From: Escherichia phage RB43
DNA length: 64,000 nt
Sequence record: NC_007023.1
Direction: 5' to 3' (one strand)
Shown here: positions 45,376-54,527 of the stretch, piece by piece
How the letters are laid out: every line of letters begins with the position of its first letter
Position numbering within the stretch: the stretch's first letter is position 1
Notes under the pieces: model-generated
Database searches by the model: none
The model's input: only the letters and a program-made list of their open reading frames with translations
What the model was told of the DNA's origin: nothing
Made by a program: the position numbers and the translations under genes

Positions 45376-46296
45376 ATGAAAATTGATTACGAATTGGTAG
45401 AAGGGTTCCGTGCTCTGCCTACTAAAGAACAGAAAGGCGCACTGGCTGACTACGCTCAAAGCACCTTTGAAGTAAAATTGAACAAACAAAAATCATTCGA
45501 TAACATGCTGGCTGATCTGGAAGCTGCTGTACCAGCGGAAGAAGAAAAACCGGAACTGCTGATTGATTCCCCAGAATCCGCGATCGTTTCGTACACTGGT
45601 AGCGTTGCAATGGATGAACCTGTTGTTAACGCTCCGAACATTCCTGATGTTGTTGTCGATGTGTCGCAGGACTTTATGGATTACGTCAAAGACGTTGCGC
45701 CGGAAGTGGCTGATCAGATTAAATTAGTCCCTGATGTTGTTGTCGATGTGTCGCAGGACTTTATGGATTACGTCAAAGACGTTGCGCCGGAAGTGGCTGA
45801 TCAGATTAAATTAGTCCCTGATGTTGTTGTCGATGTGTCGCAGGACTTTATGGATTACGTCAAAGACGTTGCGCCGGAAGTGGCTGATCAGATTAAATTA
45901 GTCCCTGATGTTGTTGTCGATGTGTCGCAGGACTTTATGGATTACGTCAAAGACGTTGCGCCGGAAGTGGCTGATCAGATTAAATTAGTCCCTGATGTTG
46001 TAGAAGCGTCTGTAACCGCTTCTGACGAGTCCAAAGCTGATATGGCATGGTTGGACGGGTTTAGCCCTACAATCGTTCTGATGGGGCGTAGCGCTCGTTC
46101 TAACGGCTATTATACGTGTCCCTGGTGGATCTACGATTGGATTAAGAAAAATCCAGATTGGTACAAAGATCCTGACCAGTGTCCACACTACAGCGCACGG
46201 GATACCCTGAAATCGCTGGTGTACTACATCAAACGTGATGGTCAAGTTACTGTGCGTGAAACGCGCAACAGCAGTTTCGATACCTTCAAATTTTAG
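45376..46296 (+). CDS. hypothetical protein with 4 identical 29-aa repeats and C-terminal PWWIYD domain
   Basis: 306-aa ORF; repeat PDVVVDVSQDFMDYVKDVAPEVADQIKLV x4; C-terminal YYTCPWWIYDWIKKNPDWY. Confidence 0.6.
   Translation: MKIDYELVEGFRALPTKEQKGALADYAQSTFEVKLNKQKSFDNMLADLEAAVPAEEEKPELLIDSPESAIVSYTGSVAMDEPVVNAPNIPDVVVDVSQDFMDYVKDVAPEVADQIKLVPDVVVDVSQDFMDYVKDVAPEVADQIKLVPDVVVDVSQDFMDYVKDVAPEVADQIKLVPDVVVDVSQDFMDYVKDVAPEVADQIKLVPDVVEASVTASDESKADMAWLDGFSPTIVLMGRSARSNGYYTCPWWIYDWIKKNPDWYKDPDQCPHYSARDTLKSLVYYIKRDGQVTVRETRNSSFDTFKF
45643..45990 (+). repeat. perfect tandem repeat, 4 x 87 bp (plus 11-bp partial fifth unit)
   Basis: Units at 45643, 45730, 45817, 45904 identical by eye; in-frame inside CDS. 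Confidence 0.9.
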
Positions 46297-46317
46297 CACT
46301 TTTTGCTAAAAATCTGG

Positions 46318-46346
46318 TTGACTCGTACCCCGCTTTAAAGTATATT
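46318..46346 (+). promoter_or_regulatory. sigma70-like promoter (TTGACT-17-TATATT)
   Basis: Upstream of ORF 46397. Confidence 0.35.
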
Positions 46347-46396
46347 TGTACTCGAAGGCGGGGGAAAGGCTCTCGCAGTGAAAGAAGGAAAGCAAA

Positions 46397-46714
46397 ATGA
46401 AAAACGAAATGATGAAAAATGCTTATTATCCGGTTTTGTTTGTTTGGGGCGGGGAAAAAGTTAAAACTATCGTTAATTCACAAGCTCCGTATTACACTGT
46501 AGGTGAAGCACTTCGTCACGCCGCCGAAGCTGATTATCCGGTATCATTTGAACCTGGTTATGCTCGTTGGAACGGTTCTAAGTGGGTTGCTGATAGCTGG
46601 GACAACTACGAAGAATCAAGAATGGAACATGATCCTGATTATGTTTCTCGCCAGATGGAAGCGCACATGATTGCAGACCGTCGCCTCGATAATGAAGCTC
46701 GCGGATTCTGGTAA
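46397..46714 (+). CDS. hypothetical protein (105 aa)
   Basis: ORF with GAAGGAAAG SD. Confidence 0.5.
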   Translation: MKNEMMKNAYYPVLFVWGGEKVKTIVNSQAPYYTVGEALRHAAEADYPVSFEPGYARWNGSKWVADSWDNYEESRMEHDPDYVSRQMEAHMIADRRLDNEARGFW

Positions 46715-48916: not shown

Positions 48917-49750
48917 TCAACCCCATGTATCGGTTTTGGGTGCGTATGCTGCAACTTTAGCAACCAATTCCTTATCAAGCTGGTCAATAGATTTCTGTGC
49001 TTTACCTTTTGACTTAACTTTGATGTAGTTAGACTTGACAACAAACATACCGCCTTTGTCAGATTTTTTGATCTCGCTATCGATACCAACTTTGTTAAAG
49101 CTGATCCAGATATCACCATCCATATACTGTTTCAGTGAATCGCCCATGTTCAGGATCTTAGCCATAGTAAGAGCGGCCCCTTCGTGGGTATCCATGAGGA
49201 TCTCTTTAGGAACCACACGGTCACGTTTCAGGTTCTGCTGCATAGCAATATGAACATCGTTCATTACCCAAACGATATGGATGTTTTCTTTATGGTATCC
49301 CAGCGTTTCAACGTCACGGGCAATGCTTGCCAGCTTGCTCATGCTTTTTAGGGTAACGTCGAAAATCAGGTTTGGTTTGCGGTCTTCTGGTGCTGCTGCA
49401 ATACCAGCATAAACACGCGCCTGGTTTTTGTTGGATACGTTGAAAACGTCTGCGATCACATGATGCAGGGTTGCCACGTTATCCGGGTTTTTCAGGTTCA
49501 TGGTTTTAACATCATGACCAGTTTTAGCTTTGATTTCTGCCGCCAGTTTGGTGCTACCCATTACCAGCTTTTTCAGTGCGTCAACGTCCAGTGTGATTCC
49601 TTCGATACCTAACAGTTTTTCGAGGGTAAAACCTTTACCGGAACCCGCACCGCCAGCCAGGATCACAACCTGACCAAATTTAGGATATGCCTTGCCGCCA
49701 AACGTAATCAACGCTTCGTCAAGGGATACAAAGTCTTTGAATGATTTCAT
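48917..49750 (-). CDS. capsid-targeting-sequence protein with P-loop kinase-like domain
   Basis: N-terminus MKSFKDFVSLDEA (CTS-like) followed by Walker A VVILAGGAGSGKGFT. Confidence 0.6.
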   Translation of the reverse strand: MKSFKDFVSLDEALITFGGKAYPKFGQVVILAGGAGSGKGFTLEKLLGIEGITLDVDALKKLVMGSTKLAAEIKAKTGHDVKTMNLKNPDNVATLHHVIADVFNVSNKNQARVYAGIAAAPEDRKPNLIFDVTLKSMSKLASIARDVETLGYHKENIHIVWVMNDVHIAMQQNLKRDRVVPKEILMDTHEGAALTMAKILNMGDSLKQYMDGDIWISFNKVGIDSEIKKSDKGGMFVVKSNYIKVKSKGKAQKSIDQLDKELVAKVAAYAPKTDTWG

Positions 49751-49782: not shown

Positions 49783-49812
49783 TTGACACCGTTTATTGGT
49801 TGGGTTTATAGT
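49783..49812 (+). promoter_or_regulatory. sigma70-like promoter (TTGACA-18-TATAGT)
   Basis: In divergent intergenic region upstream of ORF 49863. Confidence 0.4.
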
Positions 49813-49862: not shown

Positions 49863-50783
49863 ATGAAACTTGAATTAAACCGCTTCATCAAAGCCGCTGC
49901 TGCTGGCGACCAGTCAAAATACAAATCCCGTCGCGATACCCTGATTGACGATTTCTGTAATCTGCTGGGGTTCAAGCGCTGGCATACTCCGTCTATGCGT
50001 CCAGACTGTGATCCAAAATGGGATTACTTCAAATGGACTCCCCGCGATCGTGGTTATGTCGATAACGTCCGCGTAATGACATTCACTCATATGTACGCAA
50101 ATGCAATAATAGAAGTTGCCAAACGTAATAATTCTACGTACCCGAACGGGTGGAAGGTTGCAGAAGTCATTGAAACCCTGATGCAACTGCGCCGTGAATA
50201 TAAAGCTGGAATGATGATGCAACTGCGCCGTGAATATAAAGCTGGAATGATACGTAAATTGGAAGAACAATCCGAAAGACATGAATATAAAGAATGGTCT
50301 ATCGTCGCAAAATATCTGCTGAACATCACCTATTCGGTTTTCTGTCGCTTCGGAACAAAAGAAATCGGGTTCGGTTCTCATGATATCATTGCAGAAGCCC
50401 GTCATCGCCTGACATACGCGATCCTGAAAATTCAAAATTCCGGTGGTCTTGTTCTGGCTGCATTCTGTGATGAAATTGTGTACTACGGCGATCAGGTTGA
50501 AGTTGAAGGTGTTCACCACGAAAAATTCAACAAACTTGTGTTCGGACAATATAACAGCTATTCATACGGAAACGATATCCGCGTGATGATGCACCCGCGT
50601 ATTATGCTGGATATGGAAGGGTGGGAACCTGGACACGGGATCGGTGATATCGAAAGCCAGCGTGAACGCCGTGTTCGTTCTGTCGCAAAAGCTCGCGAAT
50701 TGATGACGGGTAGCCTTACTGATTACCTGTTCAGAACAAAAGAAGACGTTGAAAAAGAATTTGTTGACTTGTCGGGCGAATAG
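49863..50783 (+). CDS. hypothetical protein (306 aa) containing a 36-bp tandem duplication
   Basis: ORF; MQLRREYKAGMM / MQLRREYKAGMI duplicated in frame. Confidence 0.55.
   Translation: MKLELNRFIKAAAAGDQSKYKSRRDTLIDDFCNLLGFKRWHTPSMRPDCDPKWDYFKWTPRDRGYVDNVRVMTFTHMYANAIIEVAKRNNSTYPNGWKVAEVIETLMQLRREYKAGMMMQLRREYKAGMIRKLEEQSERHEYKEWSIVAKYLLNITYSVFCRFGTKEIGFGSHDIIAEARHRLTYAILKIQNSGGLVLAAFCDEIVYYGDQVEVEGVHHEKFNKLVFGQYNSYSYGNDIRVMMHPRIMLDMEGWEPGHGIGDIESQRERRVRSVAKARELMTGSLTDYLFRTKEDVEKEFVDLSGE
50181..50252 (+). repeat. tandem duplication, 2 x 36 bp (35/36 identical)
   Basis: ATGCAACTGCGCCGTGAATATAAAGCTGGAATGAT(G/A) repeated head to tail. Confidence 0.85.
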
Positions 50784-50819
50784 CGATAAGCTGTAATCAC
50801 TGAAAACAAGGAGATAACC

Positions 50820-51138
50820 ATGAATACCATTCACTGCCGCAAAGAGTTCGTTGAGTTCTATCACGGATCATGTACTGCTGCCGGAATCGAAAGGCATGTT
50901 GTTACCTCCTTGTGCGTCTGAAACTCTGTCAGAGAAAGGCAGAAAGAAAAACTTAGACCGTGTTTTCTTCACCGCTGATATAGGTTTAGCCCGTATCTAT
51001 GCTGGAAGGGCTGCACGGTCAATCGGTGGTGATCCGGTACTGTATCGGGTTGTGTGTCCAGTTGACGCGGTATGTATGAACGACGACAAAGGCGCGAGTG
51101 TTTATCATGCTGCATGGGCTTTTTGTGAGGAAATATAA
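50820..51138 (+). pseudogene. small Arr-like (F-Y-H-G motif) ADP-ribosyltransferase-fold candidate; needs +1 frame change
   Basis: ATG 50820 with strong SD AAGGAGATAACC gives MNTIHCRKEFVEFYHGS... then TGA after 33 codons; +1 frame continues ...RVFFTADIGLARIYAG...LYRVVCPVD to 51138; A3 run at 50890-50892. Confidence 0.4.
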
Positions 51139-52108: not shown

Positions 52109-52636
52109 ATGAGTCGTAGAAATATGGAACGCTGGAATACTATTGTAACCAGCAGTATCAAACCAGTTGCGCCAGCGTTCAAGGAAGTTGTAGAAGAAAC
52201 TCCAGTTAAAACACAGACTGTTGTATCTTTGTGTGAAGAAGATTTAGAGCACCGTCGCCGTGCGAATCAAATTGAATTCGATCTGCGTATTGCCCGTTCA
52301 TACAACAGTAAAAACGATGATGCGCGTAGCCGTAACCTGCAATTTGCTCTTACGTTGAGCGATTGGACTGTGTTAATGAGTCAAACTACTTGTGCGTATT
52401 CCGGTAAGGTGTTTAGCACTCGCGGAGACAGCCCGAACTCTCGAACGATGGAACGTATTAACCCGATGTTGGGTTATACCCCAGAAAACACGATCGCAGT
52501 GACAAAAGCCGCTAACAGTGAAAAATCATCACTTGATGCGTTCATGAAGGGTTCTGTAATCCTTCCTGAAGTAAAACTGAAATTGTTACGCAAAGCCGCG
52601 TACCAAATTGAAAAACAATTGAAAATTAAAGGTTAA
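52109..52636 (+). CDS. hypothetical protein (175 aa)
   Basis: ORF upstream of rnlB. Confidence 0.5.
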   Translation: MSRRNMERWNTIVTSSIKPVAPAFKEVVEETPVKTQTVVSLCEEDLEHRRRANQIEFDLRIARSYNSKNDDARSRNLQFALTLSDWTVLMSQTTCAYSGKVFSTRGDSPNSRTMERINPMLGYTPENTIAVTKAANSEKSSLDAFMKGSVILPEVKLKLLRKAAYQIEKQLKIKG

Positions 52637-52640
52637 TATT

Positions 52641-53684
52641 ATGTTTGTGAAATATTCTTCTCTTACGAACCATTATGAAGGTAAATTCATCAATGGTGTG
52701 ATCATGAATGGTTTGACGGGCGGTGTGTGGGTTGCTCGTGAAAAGATCCACGGTGCTAACTTTAGTCTGATTACTTCTGACGGCGAAAGGGTTATTCCGG
52801 CAAAGCGTAGCGGTGAAATCCTTCCTACTGAACAGTTTTACGGTTGCGAACCTGTTGTTGCCCGATATGCCCCAGCAATCCGCAAACTGTGGGATGTCAT
52901 CAATACCGCACAACAGGTTAGCGGGATTTACGTTGATTCTCTGGTAATTCAGGTGTATGGTGAATTTGCGGGGCGCGGTGTTCAGAAAGATGTTGATTAC
53001 GGTGAAAAAGATTTCTACGTGTTCGATATCCGCGTAAATGGTAAATTCCTGCATGATAACATCGTTGCGGTGTATGCAAAAACTGTTGGCTTGAAAATGG
53101 CCCCGCTGTTAGCATACGGTACTTTTGACGAGATCCGAGCACTTCCGATCACGTTTGATTCAGTGGTTAACCTGGCGAACTCCGGCGCGATTCCTGCACA
53201 TAACGGGGTTGAACCTGAATTCAAAAACTTCATGACGCTGAAAGATGGTGAAGGTGAGAACATCGCAGAAGGTTTTGTTATGAAGCCCGTACACCCTGCT
53301 TTCATGCCGAACGGTGAACGTGTTGCAATTAAATGCAAAACGACGAAGTTTAGCGAGAAGAAAAACAAACAAGCGAACCGCTTCAATGCTCCGGCTGAAC
53401 TGTCGGAAAATGATAAAGTTAAACTGGATGTGTTCACCTGCTACCTGACAGAAAACCGCGTTAAAAACGTCCTGTCTAAAATTGACAGCACGAACCTTAC
53501 CGCGAAAGACTTCGGTCGCGTCATGGGGCTGACTGTACAGGATGCTCTTGAAGAAATCGAACGCAACTACGGACCGTTTATCGAACAGTTTGAAAACCCG
53601 ACGCTGGCGAAGAAAACTTTCACCAACGAAGCCTCAAGCCTGATTCGTACAAACTGGGGCGCAATCCTGAACAATGAATTTTAA
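52641..53684 (+). CDS. rnlB: RNA ligase 2
   Basis: VAREKIHGANFSL (ligase KxHG motif), VAIKCKTTKFSEKK, GRVMGLTVQDALEE match T4 Rnl2. Confidence 0.85.
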   Translation: MFVKYSSLTNHYEGKFINGVIMNGLTGGVWVAREKIHGANFSLITSDGERVIPAKRSGEILPTEQFYGCEPVVARYAPAIRKLWDVINTAQQVSGIYVDSLVIQVYGEFAGRGVQKDVDYGEKDFYVFDIRVNGKFLHDNIVAVYAKTVGLKMAPLLAYGTFDEIRALPITFDSVVNLANSGAIPAHNGVEPEFKNFMTLKDGEGENIAEGFVMKPVHPAFMPNGERVAIKCKTTKFSEKKNKQANRFNAPAELSENDKVKLDVFTCYLTENRVKNVLSKIDSTNLTAKDFGRVMGLTVQDALEEIERNYGPFIEQFENPTLAKKTFTNEASSLIRTNWGAILNNEF

Positions 53685-54323: not shown

Positions 54324-54527
54324 ATGGTAGAGATCAACGGAATCGGGGTGAACCCGAACGCATTAATTTCAAAGAACGATCCTCGTTGCGGTCGTAGTCC
54401 TACGCTGGCAGAACGTGCGCGTAAGCTGGTAGAGGAAACAAACGGCAAGATGTTTGAAACATGCCGTGAAGAAATCACCCGCAACATTCTAAGTTTTCCA
54501 ACAAAACAATCATACACGTTGATATGA
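54324..54527 (+). CDS. hypothetical protein (about 67 aa)
   Basis: Internal ATG with AAGG SD preferred over ORF-track start. Confidence 0.35.
   Translation: MVEINGIGVNPNALISKNDPRCGRSPTLAERARKLVEETNGKMFETCREEITRNILSFPTKQSYTLI

Follow-up and report, generated by a model that had tools for sequence, protein, structure and literature searches.

Iyer, Burroughs & Aravind (2022, PMC9503650) count the p0068-like proteins among the most frequent viral families of ADP-ribosyltransferases (ARTs) and assign them to the H-Y-[EDQ] clade. Members of this family from Escherichia, Shigella and Salmonella phages are paired with the gene of Dmd, and these authors read the pair as a toxin–antitoxin system which possibly acts on RNA. 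The homologues of the rifampin ART proper, which occur in Microbacterium, Gordonia and Sinorhizobium phages, form a family of their own in that study. A literature search for experimental work on any p0068-like member found none. Here we describe the gene present at positions 50820–51138 (+ strand) of a stretch of 64,000 nucleotides of Escherichia phage RB43 (Pseudotevenvirus, Straboviridae; record NC_007023.1), called the window below. We propose, with a probability of about 0.65, that it is a single gene for a minimal p0068-like ART of 105 residues, interrupted by a probable record error, and that its product would be an early mono-ART directed at a host macromolecule.

The rifampin ARTs of the Arr family (PF12120; PDB 2hw2, 9iaf and 9iba) are proteins of 143–151 residues encoded on bacterial chromosomes or integrons. 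Rifampin resistance requires each of three residues, a His, a Tyr and an Asp (H18, Y48 and D83 in the numbering of PMC3138739); the Asp83 mutant, called a substrate-binding mutant in that study, corresponds to Asp84 in the crystal numbering, which is used below. The RB43 protein comes from a phage, has no link with rifamycin, and is about 15–16% identical to Arr. With only 105 residues, it lacks the C-terminal part of Arr after about position 85 (about 55 residues in Arr-ms). Tyr49 of Arr is replaced by Phe49, and Asp84 has no alignable equivalent in the phage protein, since all the alignments end at about residue 82 of Arr.

The RNA 2'-phosphotransferases Tpt1/KptA (PDB 9ld3, 8tfi and 8tg4) have about 180 residues in two lobes, whereas the RB43 protein is a single domain of 105 residues. 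The N-terminal, RNA-binding lobe of Tpt1 holds most of the Arg-His-Arg-Arg catalytic tetrad, and this lobe is absent from the RB43 protein. The structural superposition on KptA covers 73 of 179 residues, and a Pfam scan of the RB43 protein gave no sequence-level match to the Tpt1 families. In our reading of PMC9503650, Arr and Tpt1 lie in or near the H-H-h group. In the phage enzymes Alt and Mod, members of the R-S-E clade, the active-site residues are different (PMC5512222). They are two to six times larger than the RB43 protein and have no sequence similarity to it; nothing in the RB43 data points to RNA polymerase or Cascade as the target.

As deposited, the gene is 319 nucleotides long, one base over a whole number of codons. 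The Shine-Dalgarno sequence AAGGAG (50808–50813, + strand) lies six nucleotides before the ATG at 50820, and is the same in the sister isolate RB43-GVA and in Cronobacter phage SemperBestia. The preliminary description of this DNA had reported a strongly initiated open reading frame (ORF) at this place, which can be read directly from the sequence. From this ATG, the first frame reads MNTIHCRKEFVEFYHGSCTAAGIE and then RHVVTSLCV; its complete product, MNTIHCRKEFVEFYHGSCTAAGIERHVVTSLCV, has 33 residues and ends at the stop codon 50919–50921. The second frame has no stop codon between 50851 and the TAA at 51136–51138, where it ends; it reads ...GMLLPPCASETLSEKGRKKNLDRVFFTADIGLARIYAGRAARSIGGDPVLYRVVCPVDAVCMNDDKGASVYHAAWAFCEEI.

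The two frames are pieces of one gene. The alignment with relatives reveals a single extra G at 50893–50894 (+ strand): the window reads AAAGGC at 50890–50895, versus AAAGC in RB43-GVA and SemperBestia. The additional base changes codon 25 from AGC (Ser) to AGG (Arg) and shifts the frame. The sequence obtained by removing one G at 50893 has 318 nucleotides, is identical to the RB43-GVA coding sequences CCK74086.1/CCL97703.1, and encodes a protein of exactly 105 residues (MNTIHCRKEFVEFYHGSCTAAGIESMLLPP...AFCEEI), in agreement with the frame-corrected protein of about 105 residues that had been anticipated. The +1 frame change noted in the preliminary description is thus present in the deposited sequence, and the true junction (...AAGIE-S-MLLPP...), at Ser25, comes later than HGS, the end of the first fragment given there.

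That the frames could be two separate small genes, of 33 and about 80–95 residues, is hardly credible. The deposited sequence does show two ORFs, and the record of Klebsiella phage P-KP2 annotates just an 80-residue product which starts at Met26. However, the removal of one base gives a 105-codon ORF which spans both frames and which hundreds of phages share over its full length, and the invariant His-Gly motif of the fold sits in the N-terminal piece. In P-KP2 the 105-codon ORF is fully open, so that the 80-residue product is an annotation choice; for the same reason we rejected recurrent frameshifting, which two 80-residue members of the protein clusters had suggested. Separately, the P-KP2 homologue (MT157285.1) reads YYHCS, with a Cys at the otherwise invariant position Gly16; either a sequencing error or an allele without activity might explain this.

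The region of the locus is 99.9% identical to the RB43-GVA records HE858210.2 and HE981739.1, and shares about 90% identity with some sixty phages of Enterobacter, Cronobacter, Citrobacter and Klebsiella (Pseudotevenvirus, Straboviridae). The whole window was aligned to positions 95595–159334 of HE858210.2. Over these 64 kb, the two records differ by 23 one-base insertions or deletions (indels) and 14 substitutions. The indels hit the genes of a baseplate wedge subunit (14432) and of a gp24-like head vertex protein (42325), and several ORFs of the window are shortened by them in comparison with RB43-GVA (e.g., at 54518, 62105/62129 and 63802). Three triplets of one-base indels of the same sign, each within 70 nucleotides (6548/6575/6596, 33493/33499/33559 and 55868/55875/55886), jointly bring the frame back. 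An excess of indels over substitutions in a densely coding lytic phage, essential genes included, indicates base-calling noise rather than divergence; by this comparison, one of the two records carries systematic base-calling errors.

The extra G is absent at the base level from RB43-GVA, SemperBestia and P-KP2, the three relatives that were read base by base. Most of the other relatives listed match the query over a span that is shorter by one or two bases, as would be expected if they too lacked the extra G; in six entries (Lw1, CfP1, Miller and Xman) the spans are equal. A base-calling error is the most economical explanation, given that 23 indels, some of which fall in the baseplate and head-vertex genes, stand against 14 substitutions, and the extra G is most likely a sequencing error in the deposited record.

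It is doubtful that the extra G is real and that, in the sequenced RB43 stock, a frameshift has inactivated a dispensable accessory gene, of which RB43-GVA has kept an intact copy. If it were real, the allele would be null, since a product restarted at Met26 has neither strand 1 nor His15. The two RB43 stocks were propagated separately for about 20 years, on different hosts, and their host ranges differ (PMC3157838). Some T4-like phages do not have the gene, which belongs to a variable accessory region, so its loss should be tolerable, and the two records also show structural differences, for example in the copy number of an 87-bp repeat. Against this, noise accounts better than mutation for 23 indels, which affect essential structural genes and include frame-restoring triplets, versus 14 substitutions, and the aligned relatives have no extra G. 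A programmed +1 ribosomal frameshift at GAA-AGG-C, where the ribosome would stall at AGG and tRNA-Glu would slip onto AAA to give a full-length protein with Gly25, is very improbable. The rare codon AGG is "hungry" in enterobacteria, and in other systems contexts of the type X-AGG-C favour +1 shifts; residue 25 also varies within the family, so that the Ser25Gly exchange should be tolerable. Yet the shift site is unique to the RB43 record, the ORF is unbroken in the otherwise identical RB43-GVA and in the further relatives aligned, a conserved stimulatory element was not observed, and a one-base indel that is one among 23 scattered ones calls for no special cause.

The gene is real and under purifying selection: the comparison with SemperBestia gives 22 synonymous and 4 non-synonymous codon differences. 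A match over its whole length links the protein to PHROG family phrog_2110, of unknown function (E = 7.5e-60). When 5.8 billion proteins were searched, 172 clusters were obtained at E ≤ 0.01, the best 120 of which are 63–96% identical to the RB43 protein; they come from phages of Enterobacter, Escherichia, Klebsiella, Pantoea, Pectobacterium, Erwinia, Serratia, Proteus, Providencia and Acinetobacter. With tblastn, the gene is found in 608 of 50,697 phage records, including phages of Aeromonas and Yersinia, and, at 36% identity, of Vibrio. The RB43-GVA copy is annotated just as a "protein of unknown function", and the orthologue is already a "putative ADP-ribosyl transferase" in several GenBank records. 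The homologues of Escherichia phage UPEC03 (MW250785.1, 20400–20745) and of UPEC07 are named "clamp loader subunit DNA polymerase", which is evidently a propagated misannotation.

The protein ZZ1p0068 of Acinetobacter phage ZZ1 (P0052), presumably the prototype of the p0068-like family, matches the RB43 protein with E = 7.6e-43 and 76% identity over 89% of the protein (76.3% by tblastn); its UniRef name is "ADP-ribosyl transferase". Both are solo proteins of about 100 residues from T4-like myoviruses. In Escherichia and Shigella phages, the tblastn matches lie directly upstream of dmd. Thus, in Tequatrovirus JK45, a Shigella phage (NC_054940.1, 19516–20018), a homologue of 105 residues overlaps the start of dmd by 4 nucleotides, and the pair sits between the gene 41 helicase and imm/sp. 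This overlap looks like a translational coupling of the ART with the anti-RnlA/LsoA factor. The assignment of the RB43 gene to the p0068-like family is secure on these comparisons, because its homologues flank dmd as described in PMC9503650. Unlike that subset from Escherichia and Shigella phages, the RB43 copy has no dmd neighbour, and the pairing with dmd is therefore a trait of a subset of the family rather than of all its members.

The single sequence of the repaired protein says little about its relationship to other ARTs. It matches neither PF12120 nor any NCBIfam or PADLOC model, phmmer found no match in the PDB, and the Pfam search gave only sub-threshold noise (EGF_Pikachurin, BLTP1_C), as it did with the two broken pieces. 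A match of the narrow profile of the T4-like proteins to complement factor I in the PDB (E = 1.5) was rejected as spurious. The T4-like family profile was also searched against 1.84 billion cluster representatives and retrieved 214 proteins at E ≤ 0.001, many of which are domains in multidomain proteins of 250 to 3,924 residues. Six of ten profile matches examined with Pfam exceed the gathering score of PF12120 (Arr-ms).

A broadened alignment of 41 sequences, with T4-like and distant members, makes the link to Arr visible. Among these 41 sequences, 19 match Arr-ms at E ≤ 0.01 and none matches any other family. The profile built on them finds just three sequences in the PDB, all of them Arr (2hw2 and 9iaf with E = 0.022, Arr-2 with E = 0.94). 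With hhalign, the alignment matches that of Arr over 70 columns (probability 94.3%, E = 1e-7); phage residues 9–84 correspond to residues 13–82 of Arr-ms. The distant relatives score 27–31 bits with PF12120 (the cutoff is 25), over model positions 1–67 of 99 only. With the NCBIfam model rifampin_ARR (NF033144), they reach about 26 bits, versus a cutoff of 130 bits, and the RB43 protein gives no match. By these profile comparisons, the RB43 protein is homologous to Arr at the superfamily level and is not an orthologue of the rifampin ART; the p0068-like family is best described as a sister group of Arr at this level.

A domain of about 95 residues of the same type is also present inside polyvalent proteins of up to 3,924 residues (P0136, P0144, P0161, P0179 and others). 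Its partners are those of the polyvalent proteins of phages and conjugative elements: the lambda-type portal, GNAT, Toprim, ART-PolyVal and a 2H/Acb1-like phosphoesterase. For example, P0161 combines the portal, the ART and the 2H/Acb1-like phosphoesterase, P0179 has GNAT, Toprim and ART domains, and P0132 also has ART-PolyVal.

The structure of the 105-residue protein was modelled with AlphaFold2 from an alignment of 37 sequences, with a mean predicted local distance difference test (pLDDT) score of 87.6 and a predicted template modelling (pTM) score of 0.78. The elements follow each other in the order strand 13–18, short helix 30–33, strand 48–51, helix 54–68, and strands 72–81, 84–87, 94–97 and 99–104. 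When the model was compared with the PDB using Foldseek, the top match was Arr with rifampin (2hw2, probability 1.00, TMq 0.63) and the second another Arr structure, followed by Tpt1/KptA, Arr-2, cholera toxin and ParT. In the superposition, 86 of 140 residues of Arr match the RB43 model. Among predicted viral structures, the best match outside the family is a protein of 94 residues named "Ms Rifampin ADP-ribosyl transferase" (E = 1e-7, TM 0.73/0.81). The ART fold, with its split β-sheet, is therefore present, as firmly as a prediction permits.

The preliminary description had compared the protein, loosely, with Arr. Foldseek, where Arr comes first among the folds of the PDB, and the hhalign probability bear out the ART fold and the resemblance at the level of the fold or superfamily; the protein fails the equivalog model and has Phe in place of Tyr49, and is thus no orthologue of Arr. 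The motif FYHG, which had been put forward as the His motif, does align with the catalytic His motif of Arr, both with the hidden Markov model (HMM) and with hhalign, and RVFFT, downstream, aligns with the IY(I/F)(T/S) strand of Arr. The H-Y-D/E layout it had proposed is only partly recovered: the His is present, the position of the Tyr is an invariant Phe, and the acidic residue cannot be assigned. Nor is the H-Y-[EDQ] placement of PMC9503650 obviously reproduced, since the family is nearest to Arr and Tpt1 and has a Phe at the second position.

Conservation was counted in 270 aligned sequences, made up of 120 close relatives and of representatives. The residues H15, G16, E38, R41, F49, T51, A57, Y60, A61, G69 and G70 are near-invariant among them. 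The tetrapeptide Y14-H15-G16-S17 (50859–50870, + strand) is the YHG[ST] motif of the NAD site on strand 1, and His15 corresponds to His19 of Arr in the HMM and hhalign alignments. Of the 120 close relatives, 119 keep H15, as do all 142 aligned representatives; G16 is kept throughout, and both residues lie inside strand 13–18 of the model.

The most conserved loop of the family, S37-E38-K39-G40-R41-K42-K43-N44 (50929–50952, + strand), aligns with E40-A-G42-R43-I-M-N46 of Arr-ms, such that Glu38-x-Gly40-Arg41-x-x-Asn44 matches Glu40-x-Gly42-Arg43-x-x-Asn46 in the profile alignment. It is followed by V48-F49-F50-T51, on strand 2, and by the helix which contains Y60 (50962–51000, + strand). F49 takes the position of Tyr49 of Arr, and the helix and strand 3 stay in register with Arr downstream of it. 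This position is F in all 120 close relatives, and F in 140 and Y in 8 of the representatives. The F49-X10-Y60 spacing resembles that of the Y-X10-Y pair which sandwiches the nicotinamide in diphtheria toxin and in poly(ADP-ribose) polymerases.

E103, on the last strand (51127–51129, + strand), is a candidate catalytic acid of the solo T4-like subfamily only. Position 103 is E in 120 of 120 close relatives, and mostly I, V or L in the wider family; Tpt1-type enzymes have a hydrophobic residue at the Glu position. Some distant members have a Glu at position 93 instead, and many have one at neither 93 nor 103.

Several observations weigh against the reading of the gene as an early ART of the Arr superfamily broken by a record error. 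The narrow T4-like profile gets only 29% against Arr in hhalign; the link to Arr needs the broadened profile, and even then the direct E-value in the PDB is marginal (0.022). The canonical Tyr is a Phe in the RB43 protein by every alignment, E103 is invariant in the T4-like subfamily only, and the region of Asp84 of Arr cannot be aligned, so catalysis is not assured. The sequencing error is inferred from the pattern of differences between records only. The number of sigma-70-like promoter matches in the region is that expected by chance, and the neighbours of the ART are not conserved between genera: they all differ between ZZ1, the contigs which resemble Proteus phages, and the T-even phages. 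Finally, the hints of a connection with RNA, discussed below, are circumstantial, and dmd is not adjacent to the gene in RB43.

In the mechanism that we propose, the protein would bind NAD+ in a cleft formed by His15-Gly16, Phe49, Tyr60 and the Glu38-x-Gly-Arg41-Lys-Lys-Asn44 loop, and would transfer one ADP-ribose to an acceptor in the infected cell. Expression would probably be early, driven by a promoter of the sigma-70 type that lies before the preceding ORF, and the protein would probably act as an accessory factor in host takeover or counter-defence. As the acceptor, a host macromolecule is favoured; RNA or an RNA-associated protein may be somewhat likelier than a generic protein, and a small molecule less so. 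That the RB43 protein is an active transferase of some kind seems likely.

An acceptor other than a protein side chain, either RNA (at a phosphate end or a 2'-OH) or an immune signal derived from a nucleotide, is conceivable but doubtful in our opinion; the same low rating goes to the particular RNA acceptors that come to mind, host tRNA or mRNA, or the substrates of toxins of the RnlA/LsoA type which Dmd counters. The hints of an RNA-linked acceptor are that the nearest folds, Tpt1 and Arr, use non-protein oxygen acceptors (the oxygen of an RNA phosphate and the hydroxyl of a small molecule, respectively), that the ART is coupled to dmd in T-even phages, that it is fused to a 2H/Acb1-like phosphoesterase in one polyvalent protein, and that an Rnl2-type RNA ligase and a P-loop kinase are encoded near the RB43 gene. 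Protein targets would be an equally good fit to the setting of the polyvalent proteins and to the examples set by Alt, Mod and AcrIF11.

It is unlikely that the protein is not a transferase at all, and serves instead as a "sponge" for NAD+ or ADP-ribose derivatives or as an NAD+ glycohydrolase, a toxin or exclusion factor which a partner such as Dmd would neutralise. The residues of the NAD site are invariant, yet the usual position of the catalytic Glu is hydrophobic in most of the wider family; the ART-dmd pair has been read as a toxin–antitoxin module (PMC9503650), and the stop codon of the JK45 ART overlaps the start of dmd. However, RB43 and the Acinetobacter and Proteus phages have no partner gene, and a lytic phage would suffer from the depletion of NAD+. 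Glu103 is moreover invariant in the T4-like subfamily and Glu38 throughout the family, and the Tpt1-type ARTs are transferases in spite of having no catalytic Glu. A genuine Arr-type modifier of a rifamycin-like antibiotic or of another diffusible compound, which would shield the host RNA polymerase needed by the phage, is quite improbable. Arr is indeed the nearest solved family by profile and near the top by structure, and Iyer et al. suggested that Arr-family ARTs, which some actinophages have, modify antibiotics or immune compounds (PMC9503650). But the RB43 protein is about 35–40 residues shorter than Arr, with alignments that end at about residue 82, and the equivalog rifampin_ARR is not reached either by it (no match) or by its relatives (about 26 versus 130 bits). 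That injected polyvalent proteins carry the same domain beside portal, GNAT and Toprim modules fits macromolecular targets, and the p0068-like and rifampin-ART proteins are kept as separate families in PMC9503650.

In RB43, the ART gene is preceded, in the same orientation, by an ORF of 306 codons (49863–50783; phrog_7439, function unknown). A sigma-70-like sequence, TTGACA-18-TATAGT, which matches the consensus at 11 of 12 positions, lies upstream of this ORF (49783–49812, + strand); it is a consensus match only, and a possible early promoter of the unit formed by the 306-codon ORF and the ART gene. The late-promoter motif TATAAATA was found nowhere nearer to the ART gene than 47320. Downstream, and in the same orientation, are two small hydrophobic ORFs, two unknowns, an Srd-like protein and the Rnl2-type RNA ligase; none of the small hydrophobic ORFs is annotated as Dmd. 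No conserved partner or antitoxin was found beside the ART in ZZ1, the Pm5461-like contigs, SemperBestia and RB43, and dmd was found in the T-even group only.

The Srd-like protein (175 residues) is of the type named "decoy of host sigma70" and has similarity to HNH/endonuclease VII profiles; its gene and that of the 347-residue ligase, which matches the Pfam families RNA_ligase and T4_Rnl2_C, occupy 52109–53684. On the other side, and divergent from the ART unit, 48917–49750 (− strand) encodes a P-loop kinase-type protein of 277 residues (phrog_5268, function unknown), which matches the Pfam family Zeta_toxin above the cutoff (E = 2.7e-7).

The 306-codon ORF contains a perfect tandem duplication of 36 bp (2.0 copies, 50179–50251), so that MMQLRREYKAGM occurs twice in its product; its homologue in SemperBestia is 51 nucleotides shorter. 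Another pair of ORFs of 306 and 105 residues, at 45376–46714, was considered as a possible paralogous copy and rejected: the proteins are unrelated and the equal lengths are a coincidence. The first ORF of that pair (45376–46296) contains a perfect 87-bp tandem repeat (4.1 copies, 45643–46001), which encodes four copies of the 29-residue unit PDVVVDVSQDFMDYVKDVAPEVADQIKLV. RB43-GVA does not have this repeat, and its coding sequence has 660 nucleotides, versus 921 in the RB43 window. As judged from the two records, the difference may be either a copy-number variation between the stocks or a difference of assembly.

The p0068-like family is already catalogued computationally and close orthologues of the RB43 protein are already annotated as ARTs, so the novelty of the identification itself is low. 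What is added is a correction: a probable spurious base conceals a conserved gene in the RB43 record, where similar one-base discrepancies, about two dozen in all, affect structural genes among others. The family is frequent and strongly conserved, and its domain is reused in giant injected polyvalent proteins, which makes it worthy of work at the bench. Finding the target of this ART of 105 residues would extend the short list of phage systems which are understood, Alt, ModA, ModB and AcrIF11. If the acceptor proved to be RNA or an immune signal, this would represent a new enzymatic mechanism of counter-defence or of RNA marking, in about 600 sequenced T4-like phages.

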